A stretch of 64,000 nucleotides of DNA from Bdellovibrionales bacterium (GCA_028819305.1 JAPPLY010000069.1:1628-65627), one strand, 5' to 3'; counted from the first letter of the stretch, positions 2,007-61,979 are shown. Numbers and translations: made by a program. The notes: generated from the letters alone by a model not told the origin.

Positions 2007-2062
2007 TAAAATAAAAAAATATAAATCAAATCAAATTGTTGGGACTTTTTCAGAACCTTCTA
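2007..2062. mobile_element. T2 element, right-end fragment
   Basis: AAAATAAAAAAATATAAATCAAATCAAATTGTTGGGACTTTTTCAGAACC matches the right end of 43832-44082. Confidence 0.7.
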
Positions 2063-2180
2063 ATTAGAAGGGATACGGTAAAGTTTTTTTGTAAGCATCT
2101 TCTGTAAGTGAAAATAGCTCTCTTTTTAAGACTTCCCTTATCTTTTGAAGGTGGTTTCTTTTTTGAGGATCAAGAGATAG

Positions 2181-4229: not shown

Positions 4230-5624
4230 TTAAACATCCATTATTAAACGGATAGGGTCTTCCACGCATTCTTTGATTTTCAGTAAAAAACCGACAGACT
4301 CTTTTCCATCCACCAGGCGATGATCGTAAGATAAAGCTATATACATCATCGGTTTAATTTGTATTTGTCCATCTACAACAACAGGTCTTTCTTCAATTTT
4401 ATGCATGCCTAAAATCCCGCTTTGGGGAGGGTTTAAAATAGGTGTGGACATAAGGGATCCAAAGACCCCTCCGTTGCTAATGGTAAAAGTCCCTCCCATC
4501 AAATCGTCTGGGCTAATTTTACCATCCCGTGCCTTTTCCGCATAAAAGAGAACGGCTTTTTCCAATTCCGCCATTCCTTTGTGATCGGCTTCGTGAATAA
4601 CGGGAACAACTAAACCTCTATCTGTACTGACAGCTACTCCTATGTGGCAGGAGTGATTATACACCATCTCATCTCCTTCAATAAAGGCGTTCACCCTAGG
4701 GAAAGCTTGTAAAGCATGAATTGTTGCTTTGATAAAAAAACCCATGAAACCAAGTTTAACCTGGTGTCTTTTTTGAAAAGCTTCTTTATATTGAGCACGC
4801 AGATTTATTACTTTGGACATATCAATTTCGTTGAAAGTAGTAAGAGTGGCTGTGCTTTGCTGAGACTTTACAAGTCGTTCAGCAATTCGTTTTCGGATGG
4901 TGCTCATTTTCTTGCGTGTTGTTTTATACTGAGCTTGTTTGAATGTCGTGGCTTCTGTATTCTTATGGGGAAGGAACGGAGTGCGAAGAGTGCCAATTCC
5001 TGACCTGTCCGGTATATTTGATGGAGGTTTTTCGGAAGGGGAAGAGGTGGTTTTGGAAGCCCGGTTTTGGATAAAGGACAGTACATCTCCTTTTGTAATA
5101 CGACCGCCAGGCCCCTGACCTGTAATATGATCTGGATTGAGCTTGTTTTCCGTTATGAGTTTTCTAACAGACGGGGAAAGGTTTTGGTTCATGGAGTGCA
5201 AAGATGATTTTTGAGTTGAGGTATTGGGTTTATCTTTTTTCAGGAAGTTATCTATAAGTGTTTTATCAGAGGGTAATGCTTGTTTTTCCTGATTTTGGGA
5301 TGGAGAATCAAAAGTTGTATGGCTATTTGAGTTAGAAAGAGCTTTTTGAGTTTGTGTTGGTTGTTCTTTTTCTAAAGCAGGAGGTGATATAGAGGTGTCC
5401 AGTTCAGCAATCACTTCACCTACTTTTACATCCTCTCCTTCTTGTTTGAAAATATTGAGCTGACCACTTTGTTCTGCTACCAGATCCATAGAGGCTTTGT
5501 CTGTCTCCATGACCACTAATACTTCATTTTGTTTGACATAATCGCCATTTTTCTTTTGCCATTCACCAATGGTGGCTTCGGTAACAGATTCCCCCACAGA
5601 GGGAACTTTGATTTGTTGTTTCAT
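4230..5624 (-). CDS. sucB: 2-oxoglutarate dehydrogenase E2, dihydrolipoyllysine succinyltransferase
   Basis: 464 aa. Lipoyl domain METDKAS, E3-binding domain SPSVRKL...[11 protein letters not shown], catalytic DHRLVDG, SucB-like C-terminus [10 protein letters not shown]. Long Ser/Thr/Gln-rich linkers. Confidence 0.88.
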
Positions 5625-10210: not shown

Positions 10211-11506
10211 TCATAAAAATAGTTGATTGCGCCAAAGGGTGGCTGAACGGGCGGGGCCGACGGAAACCATATCCACCGGTACACCCGATTCTTGTTGGAT
10301 AAAGGTGATATAGTGTTGAGCCGCTTTTGGTAAATCTTTAAATTTTTTAATGGAGGAAATATCTTCTTGCCAGCCAGGTAAAATTTTATAAACGGGTTTA
10401 TACGAAGTTAACTCAGAGGAGTGTATAGGGTAGTTAGGGACTACCTTTCCGTTTAGTTGATAGGCTACACAGATAGGGATTTCTTTCATGTCAGAAAGCA
10501 CATCCAGTTTCATTAAGGCTAAATGAGTAATGCCACTGACGCGAACAGCGTACTTAAGCGCGGGCAGGTCCAGCCAACCACACCTTCTCTTTCGACCGGT
10601 GGTAGCCCCCCATTCTTCCCCTTTTTTTTGTAAAAAAATACCTTGCTTATCCTGGCATTCTGTAGGGAAAGGCCCTCCTCCTACTCTGGTGGTATAAGCT
10701 TTAGTAATGGCGATCACTTTTTTAATAAAGCCTGGTCCAATACCTGATCCCACTAAGGCGGCTCCTGCTACTGTATTGGAGCTGGTAACATAAGGGTAAG
10801 TGCCATGTAAAATATCCAGAAGGCTGCCCTGGGCCCCTTCAAAAAGGACTTTTTTGTTTTCTGTTAAAGCTTTATGGATAATAAAGGAGGTATCCTGACA
10901 ACGGTAGGGTCTTAGCTCTTCTCTTAAAAAAAGAATCTGTTTTAAAGTGTTTTCTAAAGAAATGGCTTTTTCTTTATAAAATTTTTCAATTAGGAAATTT
11001 TTCTCACTTAAGGCACGCTCTAGTTTATGTTTTAATATTTTCTCATCTAAAAATAAATCTCTGAATAACAAAGCTTTGCGGGAGGCTCTATCTTCATAAG
11101 CCGGGCCAATTCCTTTTCCAGTGGTGCCTATTTTTTCAGCCCCTTTTTCGCGAGCCTGGTCCAATACTTTATGATAGTCTAATAACACCGTGGCCGAATC
11201 CGAAATAAGAAGCTTTGAAGAATCGCTTAAACCATCCCCGGATTCTTTAATAGCTTGTATTTCAGAAACTAAAGTTTCCATATCCAAAACAACACCGGCA
11301 CTAATCACACAGATCGTGTTGGAATGGAAAACTCCAGAAGGAATAAGATGCAGGACTTTTTTTTGTCCGGCAATATTTAATGTATGACCGGCATTTGATC
11401 CCCCCTGGTAACGAATCACATAATCCGCTGTAGAGGAAAAAACATCAACCGCTTTTCCTTTTCCTTCGTCTCCCCATTGGGAACCTATTACAATAACACC
11501 TGACAC
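10211..11506 (-). CDS. purA: adenylosuccinate synthetase
   Basis: 431 aa, GTG start. GSQWGDEGKGK P-loop, TTGKGIGPAYEDR, GATTGRKRRCGWLD. Confidence 0.95.
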   Translation of the reverse strand: MSGVIVIGSQWGDEGKGKAVDVFSSTADYVIRYQGGSNAGHTLNIAGQKKVLHLIPSGVFHSNTICVISAGVVLDMETLVSEIQAIKESGDGLSDSSKLLISDSATVLLDYHKVLDQAREKGAEKIGTTGKGIGPAYEDRASRKALLFRDLFLDEKILKHKLERALSEKNFLIEKFYKEKAISLENTLKQILFLREELRPYRCQDTSFIIHKALTENKKVLFEGAQGSLLDILHGTYPYVTSSNTVAGAALVGSGIGPGFIKKVIAITKAYTTRVGGGPFPTECQDKQGIFLQKKGEEWGATTGRKRRCGWLDLPALKYAVRVSGITHLALMKLDVLSDMKEIPICVAYQLNGKVVPNYPIHSSELTSYKPVYKILPGWQEDISSIKKFKDLPKAAQHYITFIQQESGVPVDMVSVGPARSATLWRNQLFL

Positions 11507-12594: not shown

Positions 12595-14055
12595 ATGAGG
12601 AAATGGGTTTTTATTATCCTCCCAGTTGTTTTTATCGCTTTATTTTTAGCCATTAATAATCTGATACTTTCTTCTGAGTATTCCTATATGAATACGCGTC
12701 GTGACCAACCCTATAAATTGGAAAGTAAGTTTCCATTTCCCATCCCGTCTTTGCGTAAGGATAAAGCGGATGAAGACAAGGGTATGGTTACAAAAAGCGA
12801 TGCACTGCTATTTACCTCAAAGAAAAACATAGTTATCAAAGAGGAGCCTGGTAGTATTAGGCAGCTAGGACAGGATGTAATACCTACTTCTTCCTACAAG
12901 GAATCCTCTAGGGCTTTTCTACAGACCGAAGCGGCTGCTTTCCATCCCTCTTCTCAGGATGGGGATCTTGGTCTTTCTTTTATTATGGAAACACCCCCTT
13001 CTGTCTTTTTTTCCCTAGAGTTTATTAATGAGCAGATTTTAGAACAGGATACCTTGTTTAAAAATATACCTGTTGGTGGTTTATCCGCTTTGACTTACCA
13101 TCCGGAAAAAAAACATTTTTTGGCTTTATCAGATGCTAAAGGAAATAGAAGAGGACCACCTCGTTTTTATAAATTAAAGTTAAATAAGAAAGAGGAGGGA
13201 AAAAAATACGAACTTGAGTTAATAGATCAGGTTCTTTTACAAAATAAAATCGGCAAGCCCTTTAAACCTATTGACCCAGAAGGGATTTCTTTTTTTAAGT
13301 CAGACTATATATTTATCAGCTCTGAAGGGGTCCAACTTCCTTATTTAATGGAGCCTCCTGGTGTTTTTGTATTTGACTCACAGGGAAAATGGAGTTCCTC
13401 CTGGCCCCTTCCAGATATATATTGGACAGATGATCCTTCTCGAAGGGACATTTGGGGGGTAAAAGAAAATAAGGCTTTTGAAGCTTTGACAATAAACCAT
13501 GAGCAAAATCAACTTTGGTTGGCTACAGAGTCTTCTCTTCACCAAGATGATTTAATAGAGGTAGATGCTTCAGATAAACAATATATTCGTATTAGCCGTT
13601 TTGATGTTGAAATGGCTCAAATGACAGGCCAATTTATTTATGAAATGGATTCTTATATTGAAATAAATAATTTCACAGGCCATAATGGCTTGACGGATTT
13701 TTTCTCTGTAGGGGATGCAAAATTCTTAGTGGTGGAAAGGACCTATTTAAAAAATAATTCTATTTCTGGGGATAGAAAAACAGATAACAACCTGGTTCGC
13801 TTGTTTTTAACTGATTGTTCGAGGGCTAGTGACATATCACACTATAAAAAACTTAATAAAGGACGTATTGTTACCTGTGGAAAAAAACTAGTTGCGGATT
13901 TGTCTGCCGCCTTGGGAGATGTCGTAGATAATATTGAAGGTATTACAATAGGACCGGAAGTTTCTAAAGGGCAATATTTGCTAGTACTGGTTAGTGATAA
14001 TAATTTCAGTCGTAAACAGAAGACACAATTTTTATTTTTTCACTATTCATTATGA
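12595..14055 (+). CDS. secreted esterase-like/phytase-like family protein (putative)
   Basis: 486 aa. N-terminal TM/signal. IDPEGISF and C-terminal VLVSDNNFS...TQFLFF resemble the esterase-like activity of phytase family as I remember it. Confidence 0.45.
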   Translation: MRKWVFIILPVVFIALFLAINNLILSSEYSYMNTRRDQPYKLESKFPFPIPSLRKDKADEDKGMVTKSDALLFTSKKNIVIKEEPGSIRQLGQDVIPTSSYKESSRAFLQTEAAAFHPSSQDGDLGLSFIMETPPSVFFSLEFINEQILEQDTLFKNIPVGGLSALTYHPEKKHFLALSDAKGNRRGPPRFYKLKLNKKEEGKKYELELIDQVLLQNKIGKPFKPIDPEGISFFKSDYIFISSEGVQLPYLMEPPGVFVFDSQGKWSSSWPLPDIYWTDDPSRRDIWGVKENKAFEALTINHEQNQLWLATESSLHQDDLIEVDASDKQYIRISRFDVEMAQMTGQFIYEMDSYIEINNFTGHNGLTDFFSVGDAKFLVVERTYLKNNSISGDRKTDNNLVRLFLTDCSRASDISHYKKLNKGRIVTCGKKLVADLSAALGDVVDNIEGITIGPEVSKGQYLLVLVSDNNFSRKQKTQFLFFHYSL

Positions 14056-14139
14056 TATGTTTTGTTGTATTTGTACTCCGTTGGTTTGAATTTTTATGTT
14101 GTTTTTTATGATGGTAGTGGTCTTTTCAGGAAAAAATCA

Positions 14140-15039
14140 ATGAAACCTTATCTTTTTGTTCCGGGAAAGTACAAAAAACCTTCTTTAGTATCTCCAGAAG
14201 GTAGGATGACTTACTTTCATAAATCGCATAAAATCAAAGATCCTACGTGTCTTCCTTCTCGTGCTATTTTATGTTTTTGGGATGGCTTGGCTCGGTCTCT
14301 TAAAAAAAGAAAGGACTTTCAAAAAAGTCTTTCTGTTCACGAAACGGGTGGTTTGCATGTTGATTTATACCGAACAGGTCAAGAAAACGCGCCCTCCAAA
14401 CTCCGTTCGTCCTCGGGAAGAAGTTTACAGAAACGACAAAACTCAAACCCGATCAGTATATATAAACCGCAGAGTGCGGCACAGTCTGCATCTGTTGCTG
14501 TAGTGAGCCGTTTTGGGATAGGCGCTCCGGCAGGAGTGGTGTGTTTAGAGAACTTGCGCGCTTATGGAGTAAAGGAGTTTATAAGTGTGGGTCTCGTGGG
14601 CTCTCTAAATTCAAATTTAAAATTAGGTTCCAAAGTGCTAATCAAAAAATCTTTTAGAGGGGAAGGATGTTCTTATCACTATAGAGCCCCCTTTCCTTAT
14701 GTTGAAATGTCAGAGAGTGAAGAGAGGGGTATGTATTTAAAATTGATTAAAGAATTAAAATTAAAACCAGTCGTTAGTTGGACTACAGACGCGCCTTTTA
14801 GAGAAACAAAAGAAGAGGTGCTGTATTTTCAATCTAAAGGCGTAGAGTGTGTGGAAATGGAAGCTTCCGCTTTGATGGCTGTAGGGGAATATTACGGTGT
14901 GTCTGTCTTTTGTCTAGGTGTCGTATCGGATCACCTTTCTCCTGAAGCTTGGACTCCAGGGTTTTTTGATCCTTCTGTTAAAAAGAGTTTGTCTGAACTC
15001 CTTAATAAGATATTGTTTTTATATACTGATTTTGTTTGA
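14140..15039 (+). CDS. nucleoside phosphorylase-family protein (PNP/UDP_1 superfamily) carrying an in-frame T1 insertion
   Basis: RFGIGAPAGVVCLENLRAYGVKEFISVGLVGSL, WTTDAPFRET and VECVEMEASAL fit the phosphorylase superfamily. Start moved to ATG 14140 (MKPYLF). The last 6 codons plus stop lie in a T1 terminus. Confidence 0.55.
   Translation: MKPYLFVPGKYKKPSLVSPEGRMTYFHKSHKIKDPTCLPSRAILCFWDGLARSLKKRKDFQKSLSVHETGGLHVDLYRTGQENAPSKLRSSSGRSLQKRQNSNPISIYKPQSAAQSASVAVVSRFGIGAPAGVVCLENLRAYGVKEFISVGLVGSLNSNLKLGSKVLIKKSFRGEGCSYHYRAPFPYVEMSESEERGMYLKLIKELKLKPVVSWTTDAPFRETKEEVLYFQSKGVECVEMEASALMAVGEYYGVSVFCLGVVSDHLSPEAWTPGFFDPSVKKSLSELLNKILFLYTDFV
14366..14462 (+). mobile_element. T1 MITE-like element inserted in frame within CDS 14140..15039
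   Basis: TATACCGAACAGGTCAAGAAAACGCGC...GACAAAACTCAAACCCGATCAGTATATA. The left 27 nt align with 61836-61862 (TATACCGATCGGGTTTGAAAATCGCGC). Encodes YRTGQENAPSKLRSSSGRSLQKRQNSNPISIY. Confidence 0.7.
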
Positions 15040-15212
15040 ATTTTCCCGATGGCTTGTAGGCGGGAAGGAAGTTGTTGCCTTCTCGCCCCGCGGAAACGGA
15101 AAGCCACTTTGTTGCCTTCTTCTCCCGCGAAGCTTGTCCTCGCGAAAGTATTGTCATTCTCGCGAAAGCGGGAATCTCTTTCTGACAGGAATTTTTAAAC
15201 ACAATTAGTGTA
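15022..15212. mobile_element. composite T1 element with hairpin modules
   Basis: Starts TATACTGATTTTGTTTGAATTTTCCC. Contains GGAAAGCCACTTTGTTGCC, CGCGAAGCTTGTCCTCGCGAAAG and TCTCGCGAAAGCGGGAATC. Ends ATTTTTAAACACAATTAGTGTA. Confidence 0.7.
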
Positions 15213-17676: not shown

Positions 17677-18510
17677 ATGGAAGATCTAAAAAAAATATTT
17701 CAGGAAAAATATAAAGAGTTGGGTATTCCTATACCCAGCCTTCATTTTGTTTTGGGTTCTTTAATGGGATCAGAGTTAGAGGGGTGTCATAAAAACTCTC
17801 AATGGGAAAAGAGTGGGCGTCTGGCTTTCTCCGAAGTACCAGGTTTAAATCCGCCCTCTGCCCCTTCTCACTCCGGTTTTTATGAGTATTTTTATCATAA
17901 AGAAAAACATAAGAGTATTTGTTTTCAATCGGGCAGATTGCATGGTTATGAAGGTTTGTCGGCTCAAGAAGTAGTACGCACAGTCACAGGGCCTTGCCAG
18001 GCTGGTACCAATCGTTTTATGCTTTCCAATATTTCCGGAGGATTAAAGACAGAACTGGTTCCTGGTTCTGTTGTGGCCATCACAGATCATATTAATTTTA
18101 CGGGGAAAAGTCCTCTTGTGGGACTTTCAAAAGAAAAATCGAAGGATTTTTATTTTGTGGATATGGAAAAGGCTTATGATCCTGAAATGACTTCCTCTAT
18201 TGTAGAGGAGATGAAAAAACAAAAATTAACAGTACGGTCTGGTGTTTATATGGGGGTGTTAGGGCCTCAGTTTGAAACACCAGCGGAGGTGCGTTTGTTT
18301 GCCAAGTGGGGGGCTGATGTCGTAGGTATGTCCACAATATGGGAGGTGATAGCTCTTTGTTACTTAAAAGCAAAAGTAGGCGCCTTTTCTATAGTGGCCA
18401 ATCCGGCCTGTGGAGTGGGGAAGTCAGTGGAAATTAATTCTTCTTTTCTCCAACCTTGCTTTTCTTCCATAATAAGGTCTTTTTTTCACTTTGCTAATAA
18501 AAAAGTGTAA
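17677..18510 (+). CDS. punA: purine nucleoside phosphorylase (PNP/MTAP family)
   Basis: 277 aa. GRLHGYEG, GVLGPQFETPAE, GADVVGMST. Confidence 0.85.
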   Translation: MEDLKKIFQEKYKELGIPIPSLHFVLGSLMGSELEGCHKNSQWEKSGRLAFSEVPGLNPPSAPSHSGFYEYFYHKEKHKSICFQSGRLHGYEGLSAQEVVRTVTGPCQAGTNRFMLSNISGGLKTELVPGSVVAITDHINFTGKSPLVGLSKEKSKDFYFVDMEKAYDPEMTSSIVEEMKKQKLTVRSGVYMGVLGPQFETPAEVRLFAKWGADVVGMSTIWEVIALCYLKAKVGAFSIVANPACGVGKSVEINSSFLQPCFSSIIRSFFHFANKKV

Positions 18511-18888: not shown

Positions 18889-19117
18889 TATTTCCTCTCT
18901 TTTAGATGATTTTAAACTCAACGGATTTGACTTTTCCGTACCTTCAAGGGGTTTTGCCCTTGAAATAAATAGAAAACCAAACGGAAAATTCAAATACAAT
19001 CAGTATGTTTTAAACAACCTTACTTAAATTTTTGTTAAAGGACAATACTTCTTTTAAGAGCAAAACAATAGTCTTGTCAAATCAATTATCCTTTAATATC
19101 TATAAAAAGGGCCATAT

Positions 19118-19261
19118 AGTCGGTTCTGAAAAAGTCACAACAAAGTATCATGCCCGCGAAAGCGGGCATCTAGCCCTGTTTACCTTTCTAGATTCCCATT
19201 TTCACGGGACTGAAAGCTCTTAGAGAGCTTTCAGTTTGGTGGGACTTTTTCTCAACCGACT
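19118..19261. mobile_element. T2 MITE-like element (144 bp)
   Basis: TIRs AGTCGGTTCTGAAAAAG / CTTTTTCTCAACCGACT. Inner perfect palindromes ATGCCCGC-GAAA-GCGGGCAT and ACTGAAAGCTCT-TAGA-GAGCTTTCAGT. Confidence 0.85.
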
Positions 19262-19407: not shown

Positions 19408-20793
19408 ATGGAAAGAGGTAAAAAGACAATCGGAAAGCAAAAATACAATCAGCCTAAAAAAGGTTCATTTGTGAATCAAAAAAGAGGTTTTTCAACAGTG
19501 ATACTGTGTGAATACCTTCTTTCTATGGAAGGAGGGGATGGGAAAATAACGAAAAATCAAATGATTGTGGTGGATGGAAGCAGGATTCATTCGGTTGGCC
19601 CCATTCCAGAATCTTTACCTGAAGCTGAAGAAGTGATTCGGTTGAATAATCATCTGGTTTGTCCTGGCCTTATCAATACACACACGCATCTTCCTATGGT
19701 TTTATTTCGTGGCTTAGGGGATCACCTCACTTTAAAAAGATGGCTGGAGGAGCTTATTTTTCCCCTGGAAAAAAAGATGGTTGACCCGGATTTTATTCGC
19801 TTGGGGACAGAGCTAGCTATATTAGAGTTGATTAAAAGCGGAACCACCACAATATGTGATATGTATTTCCACACTCCAGTTATGGCTGAAGTATTTGAGT
19901 CTTATGGCTTACGGGGAGTCTTAGCTGTGGATATGCTCGGCTCTTTTTCCGATTGGAAAACAGACTTAGATTATTTATGCGATCGGTACAAGGGCAATAA
20001 TCAACAAGTGTATCCGGCTGTTGCCTGTCATGCCCCTTACACTTGTTCCGCGGAATTACTAAAAATGTCTTCTCAAGAAGCGCGAGATAGGAAAATTCCT
20101 ATTGTTATTCATGTAGCGGAAACGGAGTGGGAAATATCAGAAATTAAAAAGCGATACGGGAAAACTCCTGTGGTTCATTTAAAAGACTGTGGTGTTATTG
20201 GCCCTCAGTGTGTGTTTGTTCATTGTGTGCATGTTAATGAGAGGGATATGGATATAATGGCGGAGACGGGCACCCCTTTGTCGTATAATCCAGAAAGTAA
20301 TATGAAGTTGGGTTCAGGTACGGCTCCTATTTTAAGAGCTATGGAAAAAGGGATTACTGTAGGCATGGGAACAGACGGAGCGGCCAGTAATAATAATTTG
20401 AACTTATTTACAGAAATGGATACGGGGGCTAAATTACAAAAATTAAACAACCCATCTAAAACTATTTTGGCCAGAGATATTTTTTCCATGGTGACTTCTT
20501 CAGCAGCAAAGGTTTTGGGGCTTTCTCACTGTATTGGTAAGATAAAATCTGGTTTTTTTGCTGATATTATTGCTTTAAATTTGAATTATCCTCATTTCTT
20601 TCCTAGAAATGACCTTATTAATCATCTAGTGTATTCCGCTTCAGGAGGGGAGGTGGATTTTATGATGTGTCACGGAAAAGTTTTAATGAAAGAGTCGGAA
20701 ATTCAAGGAGTGGACATGTTTAGGGTGTATGCCTCTGCGGAGATGGTAAAGGAAAAAATAAAACAAGGTACAGGATATACCGATCCAGTTTAA
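19408..20793 (+). CDS. amidohydrolase, 5-methylthioadenosine/S-adenosylhomocysteine deaminase-like
   Basis: 461 aa. Metal motif LINTHTHLPM and a family-typical HVAE...GTDGAASNN. The true start may be the GTG at V22. Confidence 0.7.
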   Translation: MERGKKTIGKQKYNQPKKGSFVNQKRGFSTVILCEYLLSMEGGDGKITKNQMIVVDGSRIHSVGPIPESLPEAEEVIRLNNHLVCPGLINTHTHLPMVLFRGLGDHLTLKRWLEELIFPLEKKMVDPDFIRLGTELAILELIKSGTTTICDMYFHTPVMAEVFESYGLRGVLAVDMLGSFSDWKTDLDYLCDRYKGNNQQVYPAVACHAPYTCSAELLKMSSQEARDRKIPIVIHVAETEWEISEIKKRYGKTPVVHLKDCGVIGPQCVFVHCVHVNERDMDIMAETGTPLSYNPESNMKLGSGTAPILRAMEKGITVGMGTDGAASNNNLNLFTEMDTGAKLQKLNNPSKTILARDIFSMVTSSAAKVLGLSHCIGKIKSGFFADIIALNLNYPHFFPRNDLINHLVYSASGGEVDFMMCHGKVLMKESEIQGVDMFRVYASAEMVKEKIKQGTGYTDPV

Positions 20794-20886
20794 AAATCTT
20801 TAAAAAAGCTCACAACAACAAAAAAAAATCTGGTCCTCATCCCCGTTTCGTGAAGAATCCACCCTTTACAGAAAAGGGAATCACGC

Positions 20887-21129
20887 TAGATCATCGGTTC
20901 TGAAAAAGCCCTAAAAATTTTATTTTATATTTTTGTTATTTTAACGGAAAGCCATTAAAGTGGCTTTCTGTCCCGCGGAAACGAGCATCTAATAAATGAT
21001 AATTAGACCCCCGCTTTTGCGGGGGTGACAACATTCCCAAAAAGCTTGTCTCCGTATAAACAGAGAGATGAATTCATTTTTCCCTCCATTAGCAAAATTT
21101 TGAATAAGAAAACTTTTTCAGAACCGACT
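20887..21129. mobile_element. T2 MITE-like element with nested modules (about 240 bp)
   Basis: Ends ...ATCGGTTCTGAAAAAG and ACTTTTTCAGAACCGACT. Carries hairpins GGAAAGCCATTAAAGTGGCTTTC and CCCCCGCTTTTGCGGGGG. Confidence 0.8.
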
Positions 21130-21152
21130 AAATCGGTTCAGTATATCAAAAT

Positions 21153-29606: not shown

Positions 29607-32366
29607 ATGCTCATCAGAATGTACCATTTTATACAAATTTTGTTTAAAAATTTTAAAAGCTTGGCTAAAAAGCGGAAAAGGCCGGGAAGTTACAAAAAAA
29701 TAATACCCATTTTGTCTATTTTTATCTTTTTAGCTTTGCCCGTGATGGGGGCTTATAGCCTGGAAAACAAAAAATCAGCCCAAAAATCTTTTCCGAAATT
29801 TATTGGTAATAAACCTACAAAAAACCCCACTTTTCCTCAGTACATTGGTAAAAAACCTAAAGATGTTAAAACATTTCCTGAGCTTATTGGCAAAAAAACG
29901 GGGGTGGAACTGCAAGAGGCAAAACCGGAAGACATTACATCTAATAACTACCCTGATGTACTTGACGGTATTGGGGTGGTCAATTGGGAATTAAGCAAAG
30001 TTATAAAACTTATGAGTGAATACTTCCAGATTAAAATTATTATGGATCCTAGTATAGGTAGCCAGAAAATAAGCATTATTTCCTACACTCCCATTACGGT
30101 TGCTGAAGTTTATCAAGCTTTTTTATCTGCTCTGGCTATCCACGATCTGACAGTGATTCGTACTGGTTCTTTCTTAAAAGTGGTTAAAACAGAAGTAGCT
30201 TTAAAAAGCAATTTAAGAGTTTACGAAGGGAACAAAAAAATTAATACGGATCAGTTTCTTACCAGTATTATCAAATTAAAAAATATTAGTGCGGCCTCTT
30301 TGGAAGCAAAAATGAAACCTTTTATTGATGCAAAGGCCGTAAAGTCCCTTATTTTCTATCCTCCTTCCAATGCCGTCATTATTTCTGATTACGGTTTAAA
30401 TGTCGAGAGGATCAGAAAAATTATTAAGAGTTTAGATGTTCCCAGTAAGGATTTTATTTTTAAAGTCTTCCCCATTAAACATGCCAGAGCAGAAACACTG
30501 GTCAAAATCATTAACAACTTGTTGCCAACAGGAAACCGGCCCGCCTACTCCTATCGGAGAGCCTCCGCAAAAAAAACACAGTCCCAACAATTTGTCAACA
30601 TCAGCGCTCTTTCTTCTGATGAGAGAACCAACTCTATTATAGTTATGGGAAATAAATCCGGCATTGATAAAGTGCAAGAGCTTATAAAGGAATTAGATTA
30701 TTATAAAGACCCTGAATTAGCGGGAGGAATTTATGTTTATAAAGTGAAGCATGGAACAGCGGAGGAGTTAGCAACGACTTTAAACGATCTCATTGGCAAC
30801 ACTTCTTCTTCAAAAGAAACAGCACAAAAAAATATGCTTAAATCTTCTAACACTCCCGCTTCAAGAAGAGGGGGAGGTAGTTCTTCAGCATCAAACTTAC
30901 AAGATGTTAATACGGCACAATCTTTTCAAGATGTGCGAATCATAGCTGAAAAAAACACAAACAGCCTGCTTATTGTGTCTAATAAATACAATTATGAAAC
31001 AATATTGAATATTTTGAAAAAAGTGGATATTTCCAGAAATCAAGTGTTTGTAAAGTCTATTATTATGGAGCTTAGTACACAAAAAAGCAATGACTGGCAG
31101 ATGGCCAATTATTACTTTCCAGAAACAGGGGAAGGAATAGTGCGTATGGGGTATGGAATAAAAAAACTAACAGATATAGGTTCTCCTGGAGGAGCCACTC
31201 TCTTTTTTCCTCTCTCCCTTCTTAATATATCCAAAAGCACCACGACGGACATAACTAATTTTGCAAACTTAAATAACCTAGATATAAAAAAGGATTTAAA
31301 AATACCTACTCTATCTTCTTTTATAAATTTTTTACAAACAAATGTAGGAGCTAATATTCTTTCCACTCCCCAGGTTATGGCTTTAGATCATCAACAAGCA
31401 GAAGTAAAAATTACAGAGCATATTCCTATACTGGGAGAAAGAACCACGCAAACTAATATCGCTAATCAGTTCACTGTATCCGCCGGCAAAGAGACGGTGG
31501 AAACATCTCTCATTATTACACCTCATATTAACCCTGATGTGAACTCCATTCGTTTAGAAATTGAGCAAAAAATTGATAATATATCTAAAGAAGCGGAAGT
31601 GCCTGAAGCTCTTAGAGATTTTGGTGTAGCTGTAAAGAAAAGAACTATTAAAACTTTTATTAATTTAAAAGACCAAGAAACAGCTGTCTTAGGTGGCCTA
31701 GTAAAAGAAACCAACAGTAAAGTAAATTCAAAAATTCCCATTTTAGGAGATATTCCCATCATAGGTTGGCTATTTAAAAATTCTGAAACAGATAGAAAAA
31801 AATCCAACTTAATTGTATTTATCACACCTTATATTATTCGCTCGGCGAAAGGGCATAAAACAATCTTAAGTCGCAAATTAAAAGAGAGAATGGATTTTAT
31901 TCGTCAATTCACCGGTAAGAAAGACCCTCATCGAGAGTTAATTGAAAAAATGCGACCAACTGAACTGAACTCCCTAGAGGACTTCTCCACCTATGGGGAA
32001 AGATCTTCATGGAGTAAGGAAAAAGCTTTAAGAGAGGAAGAGGATTTACCTTACATGGATGACGACTATTATGAAGAAGATGTCATCCCTCCTGATATGG
32101 AAGCTAAGGAAACAAAGCCCGATCAACCGGTGGAGGAACGGATTAGAAATATACCAAATACAGATGAACCTGTCAGGGACGATTACTATGATGATGCTGA
32201 TTTAACTCCACCTGATGATATGTCCTCCATATCTGATACGCCCTCCATAGATGATTCGGAAGACTCTCCAGAGGAGGAGAACCAGCCTGATATGGACAAC
32301 CTGATCCCTTCAGATATAGACTCCATAGATGAGGTACCTTCAGAAGAAAAAGCACCGCCACTATAA
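29607..32366 (+). CDS. gspD: type II secretion system secretin with unusual N- and C-terminal extensions
   Basis: 919 aa. N0-like VNWELSKVIKLMSEY..., secretin core ending PILGDIPIIGWLFKNSETDRKKSNLIVFITPYIIRS. Three 14-aa repeats at 29787-29903. Acidic tail of about 130 aa. Confidence 0.85.
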   Translation: MLIRMYHFIQILFKNFKSLAKKRKRPGSYKKIIPILSIFIFLALPVMGAYSLENKKSAQKSFPKFIGNKPTKNPTFPQYIGKKPKDVKTFPELIGKKTGVELQEAKPEDITSNNYPDVLDGIGVVNWELSKVIKLMSEYFQIKIIMDPSIGSQKISIISYTPITVAEVYQAFLSALAIHDLTVIRTGSFLKVVKTEVALKSNLRVYEGNKKINTDQFLTSIIKLKNISAASLEAKMKPFIDAKAVKSLIFYPPSNAVIISDYGLNVERIRKIIKSLDVPSKDFIFKVFPIKHARAETLVKIINNLLPTGNRPAYSYRRASAKKTQSQQFVNISALSSDERTNSIIVMGNKSGIDKVQELIKELDYYKDPELAGGIYVYKVKHGTAEELATTLNDLIGNTSSSKETAQKNMLKSSNTPASRRGGGSSSASNLQDVNTAQSFQDVRIIAEKNTNSLLIVSNKYNYETILNILKKVDISRNQVFVKSIIMELSTQKSNDWQMANYYFPETGEGIVRMGYGIKKLTDIGSPGGATLFFPLSLLNISKSTTTDITNFANLNNLDIKKDLKIPTLSSFINFLQTNVGANILSTPQVMALDHQQAEVKITEHIPILGERTTQTNIANQFTVSAGKETVETSLIITPHINPDVNSIRLEIEQKIDNISKEAEVPEALRDFGVAVKKRTIKTFINLKDQETAVLGGLVKETNSKVNSKIPILGDIPIIGWLFKNSETDRKKSNLIVFITPYIIRSAKGHKTILSRKLKERMDFIRQFTGKKDPHRELIEKMRPTELNSLEDFSTYGERSSWSKEKALREEEDLPYMDDDYYEEDVIPPDMEAKETKPDQPVEERIRNIPNTDEPVRDDYYDDADLTPPDDMSSISDTPSIDDSEDSPEEENQPDMDNLIPSDIDSIDEVPSEEKAPPL
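29787..29903 (+). repeat. three tandem 42-bp (14-aa) repeats in the gspD N-terminus
   Basis: SFPKFIGNKPTKNP / TFPQYIGKKPKDVK / TFPELIGKKTG. Confidence 0.75.
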
Positions 32367-32464: not shown

Positions 32465-33337
32465 ATGAAACTACTACCTTCACATAAATTACTTATTTTA
32501 CTGTCTATAACTCTCCCTCTTTTATTTAATATTTCTTGTGCTCACCATAAGTATAAGAAGAAATATAAAAAAGCAGGCCTGGCTGTCCTTTCTCCTGTAA
32601 ATAACAGTAAAGTAAAAGGTTGGGTGCATTTTCATAAAATCGAGCGGAAAAAGGTGTTGGTAAGAGCGAAAGTGACAGGATTAGAGCCAAATAAAAAATA
32701 TGGATTTCATATCCATCAATATGGGGATTGTAGGGAAGACGGCAAAAATGCAGGTGGTCACTTAAGTTATCGCAAAAACAGCAAACACGGTGCCCCTGAC
32801 TCTGAAAAAAAACATATAGGTGATTTGGGTAATCTAGTGACGGGAAAAACAGGAACGGCTACTTACCAAAATATTCTGGATATTTGTATGTATAAGACAG
32901 GGGGTCGTTCTGTTATTGTGCATGCCAATGAAGACGACTTAAAATCACAACCTTCAGGTAACTCAGGTTCTTATATCGGTTGTGGTGTGATTGGTTATGT
33001 GAAGTCAGCAGATCAAGAAAAAGGAGTTTCTAAAGTCACAAAAGAAAAAGCCAAAGCTACAAAAATGGAAAAAGAAACCCCTAAAGCTAAAGGAACTACT
33101 AAGACTAAAGAAAAAACTAAAGCTATAGAAACAAAAAAAGGGGAACTAAAAACCAAAGAAGAAACTAAAACCAAGGAGACCGAAGAAAAAGCACCTAAAG
33201 TTAAAGAAACTATCAAGACAAAGGAAAAAGCCAAAGCCACAAAAATGAAAAAAGAAGCCCCTAAAGCTAAAGAAAAAGCCAAAGCTACAAAAATGAAAAA
33301 AGAAGCCCCTAAAGCTAAAGAAAAACCAAAACAGTAG
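32465..33337 (+). CDS. sodC: periplasmic Cu/Zn superoxide dismutase with Lys-rich repeat tail
   Basis: 290 aa. SD AAGGAG. Signal/lipobox-like LFNISC. GFHIHQYGDC, HIGDLGNL, VIVHANEDDL and GCGVIG, followed by about 110 aa of K/E/T/A repeats. Confidence 0.88.
   Translation: MKLLPSHKLLILLSITLPLLFNISCAHHKYKKKYKKAGLAVLSPVNNSKVKGWVHFHKIERKKVLVRAKVTGLEPNKKYGFHIHQYGDCREDGKNAGGHLSYRKNSKHGAPDSEKKHIGDLGNLVTGKTGTATYQNILDICMYKTGGRSVIVHANEDDLKSQPSGNSGSYIGCGVIGYVKSADQEKGVSKVTKEKAKATKMEKETPKAKGTTKTKEKTKAIETKKGELKTKEETKTKETEEKAPKVKETIKTKEKAKATKMKKEAPKAKEKAKATKMKKEAPKAKEKPKQ
33041..33337 (+). repeat. Lys-rich coding repeats, including two perfect-looking 48-bp tandem units at 33221-33316
   Basis: KEKAKATKMKKEAPKA appears twice, plus a partial third unit and a diverged copy (KEKAKATKMEKETPKA) at 33041-33088. 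Confidence 0.85.
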
Positions 33338-33446
33338 CAAAGTAAAAGTGCATTGGACAAGCTCTTGCGGGACAGGGAGTCCCAAAAGAGGCTTTCCGTA
33401 TGAGAAAATAAGTGGAAATAACGAGCTTTCTTGGAACTGACAGAAG

Positions 33447-35795: not shown

Positions 35796-35803
35796 TCCTA
35801 TCT

Positions 35804-35901
35804 AGTCGGTTCTGAAAAAGCTTTTTCTTGTTAATATTACTCCCTCAAAATAACAAAAATATAAATAAAATTAAATTGTTAGGACTTTTTCAGAATCGAC
35901 T
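35804..35901. mobile_element. T2 MITE-like element (98 bp, minimal form)
   Basis: AGTCGGTTCTGAAAAAG...CTTTTTCAGAATCGACT. Its last bases overlap the TAG stop of exbB. Confidence 0.85.
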
Positions 35902-36439
35902 ATCTATAATCCATCCACCTTGGTTGTTGAATTTGCCTTAAATAAAATTGCACACGGTTTTCCAATACACGACTAACAAAAATACCGGACAAAGCTCCTA
36001 CCATACCGGCCATGGTGGGAATAGTGGCCATGGAAATACCACTCGCCATCAGACGCGCATTACCGGTCCCTACCTCTGCCATAACTTCAAACACAGCCAC
36101 CATCCCTGTAACCGTGCCCAATAAACCCATAAGAGGACAAAGGGCCACCAAAACTTTAATAGCAGGTATATTTTTATTCAATAATAACCTTAAACCCGAT
36201 AAGTCTGCTTTCCACATTCGCAAATATAAAGAAGAAGTTACAGAGTTAGCGGGAGGGCGTTTTTGCCATTTATTTAATACTAATTGAGTATCCTTTTTGA
36301 AGCTGAAGCGAAAATACCAAAATCTTTCTATAATGTAAAACCATAGAGCTAGGAGGAGAAAAAAGATCAAATACAAAACTCCACCACCTTTATCCATAAA
36401 GTTTTGTATCACTTCAAAAAAATAATAAATATAAGTCAT
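35900..36439 (-). CDS. exbB: MotA/TolQ/ExbB proton-channel protein
   Basis: 179 aa. LMGLLGTVTGMVAVFEVMA...MASGISMATIPTMAGMVGAL. Confidence 0.85.
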   Translation of the reverse strand: MTYIYYFFEVIQNFMDKGGGVLYLIFFLLLALWFYIIERFWYFRFSFKKDTQLVLNKWQKRPPANSVTSSLYLRMWKADLSGLRLLLNKNIPAIKVLVALCPLMGLLGTVTGMVAVFEVMAEVGTGNARLMASGISMATIPTMAGMVGALSGIFVSRVLENRVQFYLRQIQQPRWMDYR

Positions 36440-43636: not shown

Positions 43637-43831
43637 TTTTTATTACACACTCAATTTATACCACTTTAGTTTAGGTTTGAGATCTCATAGGGAAAGAACA
43701 AAACACTTATTTTTCATAGTTATAACAATAAATTCACTACCTTCTGATTAACTTAAGTGATCTTGAAACTTCCCTCATTTTTATTAATCCTTTAAGAGTT
43801 CATTATGAGTTCTTAAGAAAATATTCTATTT

Positions 43832-44082
43832 AATCGGTTCTGAAAAAGTTTTCTTATTATTCAAAATTTTACAAGTTTAATATATTTTACTCAGGAAAAC
43901 CGTTTGCCGGTTGAGTTCCCAAGGACCTTGACTTTCTACCAAGAAAAACAAGGTCCGTTCCGAGAGGCAAAGCTCCGTATAAAGGCAAATCTGTTTTCCT
44001 GAAGGACACATTTACAGGATGACATCTAAAATAACAAAAATATAAATAAAATCAAATTGTTGGGACTTTTTCAGAACTGACT
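43832..44082. mobile_element. T2 MITE-like element with nested palindromes (251 bp)
   Basis: AATCGGTTCTGAAAAAG...GGGACTTTTTCAGAACTGACT. Inner TCAGGAAAAC...GTTTTCCTGA and CCAAGGACCTTG...CAAGGTCC. Confidence 0.85.
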
Positions 44083-44256
44083 ATTTATATTTCTTATCCA
44101 TTTTTGTCCAGACTAAAGCTGTGTTTTATCATTTAAAGCCGTGCTTATCCTTCATAATAGCGGTATCATTTTTAAGAAGAGAAACGGTACAATATTTACT
44201 CACGGCTATAAATCGGAACTTAATATATAGAGAACAGAAGTCACAAAGGGAAAAAT

Positions 44257-45419: not shown

Positions 45420-46934
45420 CTAACCATTTACTGTTTTTAATAACTCTGAGGGGGAGTAACAAGATTGGGAACGAACGGATAAGATACAACTTAGATAAGC
45501 TAGAAAAAAGATACAAGCAAACAGTCCGAACATAAATATGAAATTAAACTCCACGGGAAATTGAGCCCCGGCGTGAAATTGAGATAAAATAGGAATACGG
45601 GAGTATTTGAGAAATAAGCAAATAAACAAACTAAAAACCCAGGCTCCCAAAATTCCAAATGAGCATAATAACAATCCCATTTTCACAAACAAGCTCTGTA
45701 CTTTTTGCACTGGCATCCCTATAGCCATTAAAGCTCCTATCTCCTTTTTTTTCTGAACCATCAATAAAGCCAACAAAGAAGAAACAGCTAACAAAGTAAT
45801 AAGCCCCGCTAAGGATAAAAAAACGCTCATAATGATTTTTTCCACTTTCAAGGCGAGAAATACAGAGGAGTTTCTCTCTGGCCAGGCCTCTACGGAAAAC
45901 CCCTCTTTTTCCAACACTGTTTTATACGGCAAAAAATCTTCCGGTTCTGTTAAACTCATTTCAAAACCGGCATGGTAAGAACTATTTTTCCGAAAAGCAG
46001 GAAAATCTTTCCTGTTATAAAAAATGTAATTGGCATTCCATACTGCATTCTGAGTGGAAACAATAGACCCTATGTGAGCAGATTCAAATGGGATGGGTTC
46101 CCCTGGTGGAAGTAACAAATTTTCCGCTGGTATTAAATGTACTGTTTCCTCCTCGTATAAATCCAACTCACTCGCCAAACCGAAACCCAATACAATTTTC
46201 TTTTGTTCATCTTTATCTTCTTCCTTCTCCACTTCTTCTTTTTTTTCTTGAACGAAAAATAACTCTTCTTCTCCTAATCGAACCATCTTTAAATTCAGAA
46301 AGTCTTTTTTAGGCTTTTTATTATTTTTCTTCCCCGAATTATTCTGTTCCTGCTCTTCTTGAGCTTTTCCCTTCACCGAAATATGATCCAAAATATCCCC
46401 TTCCGTAGATAAAATAAAATCCCCTCTTATCTTTTGCAAAAAACTTTCTAACCAATAAGAATCGTAACCTCTAGCCACAGCTCCCGAAAACACGCCTTTT
46501 GGAGTTCGTATAACTATATCCACACTTTCAAAAAAAGAGAGGGAAATCACTTTCGAGTCTAGATCCTCCGATTTTAAAATTTTTTGAATCTTCTTTTTTT
46601 GTTCTTGAATATCCCCTTCCGGTATTATTTTTCCGGAATTTTCAAACCCGATCGGTACAAATTCATCAGTAAAAGAAATGTTTTCTTTATCCTGCTTCTT
46701 CTTTTCTAAAGAAATAATAATATGAGGTTCCGTTTCTAAAAATCGCTCTTTAATGGCCTGCCCTAATCCCCCCATAACATTAAATACAATCAATAAACTG
46801 CCAATAGAGATCACTAACCCTAAAAGACAAATAAAAGACACTCTTCGCACGACAGAATTGGCTCTTTTAGAAAAAAGATACCGATAAAAAAAAGTAAAAG
46901 CGGATAATGTACAAGGCAGCTTAACTTTAAACAA
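45420..46934 (-). CDS. FtsX-like ABC transporter permease, LolC/E-like, with Lys/Glu-rich insertion
   Basis: FFYRYLFSKRANSVVRRVSFICLLGLVISIGSLLIVFNVMGGL plus the C-terminal FtsX TM bundle. Start set at the TTG for ...LFKVKL, because the upstream 14 codons are a repeat element (GGAAACGGGGATCATCCCCGAGGGG). Confidence 0.6.
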   Translation of the reverse strand: MFKVKLPCTLSAFTFFYRYLFSKRANSVVRRVSFICLLGLVISIGSLLIVFNVMGGLGQAIKERFLETEPHIIISLEKKKQDKENISFTDEFVPIGFENSGKIIPEGDIQEQKKKIQKILKSEDLDSKVISLSFFESVDIVIRTPKGVFSGAVARGYDSYWLESFLQKIRGDFILSTEGDILDHISVKGKAQEEQEQNNSGKKNNKKPKKDFLNLKMVRLGEEELFFVQEKKEEVEKEEDKDEQKKIVLGFGLASELDLYEEETVHLIPAENLLLPPGEPIPFESAHIGSIVSTQNAVWNANYIFYNRKDFPAFRKNSSYHAGFEMSLTEPEDFLPYKTVLEKEGFSVEAWPERNSSVFLALKVEKIIMSVFLSLAGLITLLAVSSLLALLMVQKKKEIGALMAIGMPVQKVQSLFVKMGLLLCSFGILGAWVFSLFICLFLKYSRIPILSQFHAGAQFPVEFNFIFMFGLFACIFFLAYLSCILSVRSQSCYSPSELLKTVNG

Positions 46935-47124
46935 AATTATACCCCTCGGGGATGATCCCCGTTTCCACAAGGACAAATTTTTCCACTCTTTTCATTCATA
47001 TCAATTTGAATCTTGTCCCTTAAATGAGTTGTTCTAACCATCCTTAATCAATGAGGATATTCCTTATTATAAATTAGGAAAATGAAAAGGCCAGTGAGAT
47101 TTTTATGCCTTTAAAACCTCATCC

Positions 47125-61835: not shown

Positions 61836-61972
61836 TATACCGATCGGGTTTGAAAATCGCGCTTTATTTGTTTTGTCTTCTTCCAGAAGACAAAACTCCC
61901 ACGAAGCCTGCCCTCGCGAAAGCAGGGGCGGGAATCCAGCCTAATCCTCCATTTTCAAACCAGAGGGGTATA
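61836..61972. mobile_element. T1 MITE-like element (137 bp)
   Basis: TATACCGATCGGGTTTGAAAATCGCGC...GTCTTCTTCCAGAAGAC...CCCTCGCGAAAGCAGGGG...ATTTTCAAACCAGAGGGGTATA. Confidence 0.8.
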
Positions 61973-61979
61973 AGTCCGA

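Follow-up and report, generated by a model that had tools for sequence, protein, structure and literature searches.

A short element of the T1 family has very probably inserted in frame into a nucleoside phosphorylase (PNP) gene of an uncultured Bdellovibrionales bacterium through transposition that duplicates a TA target, so that the host protein is read through the element and the enzyme is retained. The gene lies in a stretch of DNA of 64,000 nucleotides (hereafter the window; G+C 37%) that was taken from a metagenome-assembled bin, and a protein identical to the gene product is recorded from NCBI, ENA and Logan sources. Several related contigs carry the names of published sponge-metagenome projects (ROBB21, ENGE20, APA_bin, RHO2_bin), which suggests that the related clade is sponge-associated. 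The positions of the features are collected in Table 1.

Table 1. Positions of the host gene, of T1 elements and T1-derived gene ends, and of a second inverted-repeat family, in the window and in related loci (L numbers).
Feature	Sequence	Position	Strand	Remarks
Host gene, NP-I family nucleoside phosphorylase/hydrolase	Window	14140..15039	+	299 aa + stop; NCBI MDE0119718.1
Left copy of duplicated TA target	Window	14366..14367	+	From comparison of empty and filled sites
In-frame element	Window	14368..14458	+	91 nt, TACCGAACAGG...CCCGATCAGTA; with one TA, 93 nt = residues 77-107 (YRTGQENAPSKLRSSSGRSLQKRQNSNPISI)
Right copy of duplicated TA target	Window	14459..14460	+	From DNA alignment with three orthologous loci
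Second T1 copy, at the stop codon of the host gene	Window	15022..15212	+	TA + 187 nt + TA, inserted at the TA of what was a TAA stop; both inverted ends present
Closest relative of the PNP element in the window	Window	4925..5016	-	In frame in sucB (2-oxoglutarate dehydrogenase E2), +30 residues (IPDRSG...KQAQY)
Short T1-type segment	Window	46608..46659	-	~48 nt = 16 residues (PIGFENSGKIIPEGDI); read in frame in a LolC/E-like FtsX permease gene, periplasmic part
T1 terminus as gene end	Window	20776..20793	+	Last five codons and stop (YTDPV-TAA) of amidohydrolase 19408..20793
Further T1-derived gene end	L019	2491
Further T1-derived gene end	L036	6110	-
Further T1-derived gene end	L040	4083
Subfamily copy (nhmmer)	L002	430-526		Same insertion as L044 1751-1847
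Subfamily copy (nhmmer)	L033	1776-1891
Subfamily copy (nhmmer)	L045	15030-15123
Subfamily copy (nhmmer)	L045	13467-13556
Intergenic reference copy, generic T1	Window	61836..61975	+	Left terminus a perfect match to the consensus; RNA -55 kcal/mol, z -5.9
Second inverted-repeat family, sites	Window	2031-2067; 19111-19143; 20885-20917; 21103-21133; 35797-35829; 35866-35902; 43825-43857; 44057-44084

The open reading frame that contains the host gene extends over 14062..15039, and its start was placed at the ATG at 14140 (MKPY...), as in all orthologues. The NCBI record of the product, named 'MAG: nucleoside phosphorylase [Bdellovibrionales bacterium]' and located on a contig of 67,954 nt, and the protein P0001 are each 100% identical to it. 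A search against Pfam gave a match to PNP_UDP_1 from residue 118 on only (E 2.7e-23; 83 bits against a cut-off of 25.1). The AlphaFold2 model of the protein has a pTM of 0.79, with a pLDDT of about 90 in the NP-I core, and its best Foldseek matches were MTAP and PNP structures such as 1jdv, with a probability of 1.00 to MTAP, PNP and MTAN. By its Pfam match and predicted fold, the host protein is an NP-I nucleoside phosphorylase/hydrolase.

The insertion is delimited by comparison of empty and filled sites. When the gene was aligned with the orthologous loci L001, L002 and L003, the insert appeared as a single gap of 93 columns; the empty site in all three reads GATC-TA-TATAAA, the filled site of the window reads GATT-TA-TACCGAAC...GATCAGTA-TA-TATAAA, and the TA duplication falls exactly on the gap boundaries. 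The TA target spans codons L76/Y77. In the protein, the residues YRTGQENAPSKLRSSSGRSLQKRQNSNPISI between ...HVDL and YK... are found in the window alone and are absent in 16 of 16 orthologues (46-89% identity), including the closest genome, L045 (GCA_965243065.1), whose PNP protein is 88-89% identical. These comparisons bear out the first-pass annotation, which had placed a T1 element with both termini at 14366-14462 and had anticipated an indel at residues of about 76-108. Its claim of an open frame adding about 32 residues holds for the frame; the insert itself comprises 31 residues, and the 32nd extra residue of the protein comes from an unrelated GGT codon upstream. It had also expected that deletion of 96 nt would restore a VDLKPQ junction, and here the numbers changed: excision of the actual insert in silico gives ...VDLYKPQ.... 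The extra GGT (Gly) codon lies at about 14347-14349, 15 nt upstream of the element, and is found in none of the orthologues.

The ends of the insert are those of a T1 element. Its right end (the reverse complement of 14439..14460) matches the family terminus, a 22-mer (TATACCGATCGGGTTTGAAAAT), at 18 of 22 positions and its left end at 15 of 22, and the two ends pair with each other at 10/13 positions. As RNA, the sense strand of this copy folds like shuffled sequence (z -0.17) and the antisense strand reaches z -2.6 via G-U pairs (n=2 copies compared); because of the sense-strand result and of the incomplete pairing of the ends, the word "palindromic" fits the PNP copy weakly. Generic T1 copies give z-scores of -4.2 to -5.9. 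There are no stop codons in any of the three sense frames of the element, and the antisense strand has stops, the first of which is the TGA of the terminus.

Membership in a wider family is supported at the DNA level. Sites within seven or fewer mismatches of the terminus 22-mer number 29 in the window, against 6.75 expected from shuffled sequences (maximum 10). The full length of the PNP element aligns, nearly without gaps, with the reverse complement of the element in sucB at 72% identity (blastn, E 1e-11), its right arm aligns with 61836-61894 (E 0.004), and a profile of the subfamily recovers the element itself at E 7e-25 (nhmmer) as well as full-length copies in L002/L044, L033 and L045 (E 1e-8 to 1e-22). 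The similarity to other T1 copies that the first-pass annotation relied on is thus significant, with one exception: the alignment it cited, of the left 27 nt with 61836-61862, has 74% identity and an E of about 2, which is insignificant alone. The six subfamily copies share their ends and length with generic T1 copies of 95 nt and differ from them in the core. Taken together, a size of 91 nt without a transposase ORF, terminal inverted repeats, a TA duplication and dispersed, polymorphic copies identify the element as a MITE, in a subfamily of the lineage-specific, TA-flanked, inverted-repeat T1 family. The TA duplication is seen at the PNP site (against three empty sites) and at the stop-codon site, and the sucB site is consistent with it. 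The gains are reciprocal: the PNP copy is found only in the window, and a copy in a phytase-like gene only in L002/L044.

The PNP gene is one of several genes hit internally. The sucB host ORF (4230..5624, minus strand) carries its insert in the linker that joins the E3-binding domain to the catalytic domain, and the reading frame used there differs from that of the PNP copy. Its empty site, TCAAAT|CAAACA, is preserved in P0124/L042, which resolved the comparison after L003 had been tried as the empty-site reference and set aside because its linker is too diverged. The phytase-like gene of L002/L044, which adjoins the PNP gene, carries an in-frame copy of 30 residues that is absent from the window orthologue (12595..14055). 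In L033, the copy is read in frame close to the end of a hypothetical ORF, downstream of which lies a pair of ABC-transporter genes. The short segment in the LolC/E-like FtsX permease gene (45420..46976, minus strand) has a terminus that matches the consensus at 21/22 positions; the L003 orthologue is without the 16 residues, and the boundaries of the segment misfit a simple TA duplication when compared with L003. Including the TA, the in-frame copies measure 93, 90, 90, 114 and 48 nt, all multiples of three. In the in-gene copies besides the PNP copy, no unused sense frame contains more than one stop, and the antisense strands have stops.

The distribution of the sucB copy deserves separate mention. 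It is common to the window and the more distant L044, yet it is absent from the closer L042 and L045, where the empty site is clean. It would take precise excision to produce this distribution, or recombination, or insertion more than once at the same TA.

Another T1 copy, at 29630-29720 of the window, lies just upstream of a likely TTG start and signal peptide of a 919-aa ORF (29607..32366), and gene callers may extend this ORF through the copy. Because the T1 end at 29630 is upstream of the likely start and signal peptide, it was left out of the tally of in-frame copies.

We considered whether the element peptide, or the subfamily as a whole, has been selected for life in genes, supplying useful loops or linkers. 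Four of the six subfamily copies are intragenic and their sites are loops or linkers; moreover, the PNP, phytase-like and L033 copies use the same reading frame (YRTGQE...SN..SI), which also stays open in the L045 copy that lies immediately before the start of the amidohydrolase gene. Exaptation of this kind is nevertheless improbable. With about 88% of the genome coding, 4/6 represents no enrichment, and the subfamily is not confined to genes, since two of the six lie between genes or in a 5' UTR. The sucB copy uses another frame, the peptide is predicted to be disordered and is poorly conserved between copies (57-65% identity), and the sucB copy of P0123/L044 (L044 5987-6050) is being whittled away, having decayed to the core with both ends deleted in frame. 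Nor was a conserved peptide family found among 1.8 and 5.8 billion proteins; in particular, a profile of four element peptides, doubled in tandem, scored nothing among the 5.8 billion. In a phmmer search with the 33-residue peptide, the single match among 1.84 billion cluster representatives was a tandem-repeat protein of 1426 aa, which we rejected as a repeat artefact. The insert is more likely to be neutral or mildly deleterious than to be of use.

The predicted structure places the insert where the fold would tolerate it. In the AlphaFold2 model, residues 82-115 have a pLDDT < 50 and form a coil between strands 73-78 and 117-123, and the insertion site corresponds to a beta-hairpin turn whose length is already variable among the orthologues. 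The insert is predicted to be a hydrophilic, net-basic, disordered surface loop between two strands. The insert-bearing protein is predicted to yield the tryptic peptides TGQENAPSK and QNSNPISIYKPQSAAQSASVAVVSR, and a C-terminal peptide that ends ...ILFLYTDFV. Translation probably runs through the insert, judging by the reading frame.

A gene that has received such an insert might be a pseudogene, or dying, its open frame being merely a leftover. The insert sits only 10 residues before a conserved strand and Gly-rich loop (VAVVSRFGIGAPAG), and a second PNP_UDP_1 paralogue nearby (window 17677..18510; compare L003 13340..14158) could compensate for a loss. The state of the gene makes this very unlikely. 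Its frame is intact over 900 nt, without frameshift or stop; all 42 of the 42 family-invariant positions in the alignment with 16 orthologues are retained, and the AlphaFold2 model folds confidently around the loop. The dN/dS against the nearest orthologue is 0.14, a measure that is blind to a very recent insertion in a gene that has just lost function. When changes were polarised with an outgroup, the window branch had 31 synonymous and 13 non-synonymous changes and the sister branch 13 and 6, such that the non-synonymous to synonymous ratio is equal on the two branches and the window branch is not enriched in amino-acid changes. The gene therefore looks intact, selectively constrained and functional, contrary to the decayed pseudogene that the first-pass annotation had named as a possible refutation, and enzyme activity is probably retained despite the insert.

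That the loop simply grew by local duplication or slippage, or that the assembly is at fault, with no mobile element involved, is scarcely credible: the same loop does vary in length elsewhere (P0008, +45 aa; inserts in P0026 and P0049), but homologues of the element turn up in unrelated genes and genomes (E 1e-11 to 1e-22), its inverted ends agree with the family consensus, the TA duplication is exact at the gap edges, and the identical protein is recorded from several sources. As the 45-aa insert of P0008 is without inverted ends or repeats, it gives no evidence of another element there.

TA-duplicating transposition followed by read-through would proceed as follows. A transposase supplied in trans would cut the TA across the L76/Y77 codons and duplicate it, after which the mRNA would be read straight through and the enzyme would bear a disordered surface loop of 31 residues. 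The insertion would have survived because its 93 nt are a multiple of three, because it holds no stop in the sense direction, and because it landed in a hairpin turn of variable length.

The 3' end of the same gene carries a second, older insertion. Positions 15022..15039 read TAT ACT GAT TTT GTT TGA, giving the protein a tail YTDFV and a new stop TGA at 15037-15039. In the orthologues L002 and L003, which are without the 3' copy, the gene ends ...LFL-TAA (...TTG TTT TT(G/A) TAA), and the right end of the 3' copy, ...GTG-TA-A, would restore the TAA. The first-pass annotation had recognised the gene end as a T1 terminus, which proved to be that of a 191-nt copy, and had counted six codons and the stop where there are five and the stop. 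Since the nearest relatives, L001 and L045, carry the 3' copy (with the tail YTDPV) and are without the internal one, the 3' insertion is the older event. In the mechanism we propose, this T1 copy would have hit the TA of the TAA stop; a terminus read as TA|TAC YGA TNN GTT TGA would bring its own stop five codons later, so that only the tail YTD(F/P)V would be added to the protein and a long hairpin to the 3' UTR. As RNA, the 3' copy (191 nt) has a folding energy of -68 kcal/mol and a z-score of -4.2. In L045, the 3' T1 copy of the PNP gene (10847-11130) contains tandemly amplified internal hairpin modules (GGGATTCCCGCTTTCGCGGGAATGACA...) and has no recognisable right end.

The same outcome is seen elsewhere. 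At least five independent genes end in a T1 terminus that provides their last five codons (YTD.V) and their stop; for the amidohydrolase in the window, the orthologues in L003 and L045 end ...KQAL-TAA. This recurrence suggests repeated T1 insertion into the TA of stop codons.

To see how widely the family occurs, 185,579 species genomes were scanned for the exact terminus pattern; 38 stretches matched, and Bdellovibrionales/Oligoflexia genome bins account for 32 of these. The related DNA sampled, about 320 kb, contains 125-127 T1 termini and about 30 paired elements (40-360 nt), all TA-flanked; as its loci were retrieved with the T1 pattern, T1 is over-represented in it. An autonomous parent was sought in this DNA as a long ORF between T1 ends; T1 ends 700-2500 nt apart enclosed only ordinary genes in the approximately 320 kb, and the only transposase nearby is IS3-type (HTH_Tnp_1 + rve; L045 18833-20025). 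An IS630/Tc1-mariner-like, TA-duplicating enzyme, its gene expected to lie between TATACCGATCGGG ends, would be the obvious candidate for mobilisation, and none was found in the sampled DNA. The whole window gave zero matches to Rfam at gathering thresholds, two subfamily-specific DNA patterns gave zero matches in scans of JGI metagenomes, and a literature search returned nothing relevant on MITEs in Bdellovibrionota.

Comparable elements are known from other bacteria. The Correia elements of Neisseria and the pneumococcal RUP are mainly intergenic, TA-duplicating MITEs with IS630/Tc1-mariner-type mobilisation. They share with T1 a size of ~50-220 bp, terminal inverted repeats that start with TA, duplication of the TA, variants that differ in size and core, and hairpin-forming transcripts beside genes; beyond TATA, their ends are dissimilar from those of T1. 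The Rickettsia palindromic elements (RPEs) are not known to have clear terminal inverted repeats and a target duplication, both of which are clear in T1.

In their behaviour in genes, the RPEs are nonetheless the closer parallel. RPE-1 to RPE-10 were described as in-frame repeats in genes (Ogata et al. 2000, as cited in PMC10969869). Like T1, RPEs are short repeats (~100-150 bp) that sit in frame in unrelated housekeeping genes, leave the host ORF intact, place their peptide at fold-compatible sites, affect many genes per lineage and vary in presence or absence between relatives. The parallel that the first-pass annotation drew with RPEs therefore stands for behaviour and not for membership. 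The hosts differ, Rickettsia on the one side and uncultured Bdellovibrionales on the other, and the sequence family is apparently a different one; T1 is set apart by its host and by the terminus scan, in which the T1 terminus pattern occurred in zero Rickettsia genomes among the 185,579 species representatives. Unlike RPEs, most copies of the T1 family are intergenic, and many replace stop codons.

The QMITE1 and QMITE2 elements of Coxiella burnetii provide the parallel for the gene ends: functional genes there run at their 3' ends into the end of a QMITE and take their last codons or stop from it (PMC5896051). Like T1, QMITEs make occasional in-frame internal insertions and form stable hairpin RNAs, but functional genes in Coxiella are hit only at their 3' ends, and the internal in-frame copies lie in hypothetical ORFs (PMC5896051). 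T1, which belongs to another sequence family, has internal in-frame copies in genes for conserved enzymes (PNP, sucB, LolC/E-like permease). T1 is thus a new element family showing a known behaviour, the in-frame insertion of MITEs as in RPEs.

In-frame MITE insertions in conserved enzymes have been documented mainly for Rickettsia, and their generality and origin have been in question. Tentatively, the Bdellovibrionales/Oligoflexia bins might represent, beside Rickettsia, a second lineage with selfish DNA inside protein-coding genes on a large scale, in which an active TA-targeting MITE remodels proteins. If this is true, short stop-free subfamilies would add surface loops and linkers to conserved enzymes, and the stop built into the terminus, five codons in, would allow harmless landing in TAA or TAG stop codons. 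Within its 64 kb, the window has three in-frame copies inside genes and two that replace stop codons; the same density in a 2-Mb genome would amount to about a hundred affected genes. The case is unusually clean, with exact empty sites in close relatives, a visible TA duplication, and reciprocal gains and losses in neighbouring genes of sister genomes. Some copies are fresh and some decayed, and others are intergenic or at a stop codon, a range that makes it testable whether the inserts are tolerated or used, how fast they decay and which protein sites accept them. In such bins, gene callers and orthology pipelines will silently give longer proteins and altered C-termini.

Two further repeats were seen in the window. 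Positions 33038-33350, within an ORF of 290 aa (32465..33337), hold degenerate tandem repeats with a period of 18-66 nt, in which codons for Lys, Ala, Thr and Glu abound. A second inverted-repeat family, with ends like TAGTCGGTTCTGAAAAAG, is often found beside T1 copies in intergenic regions.
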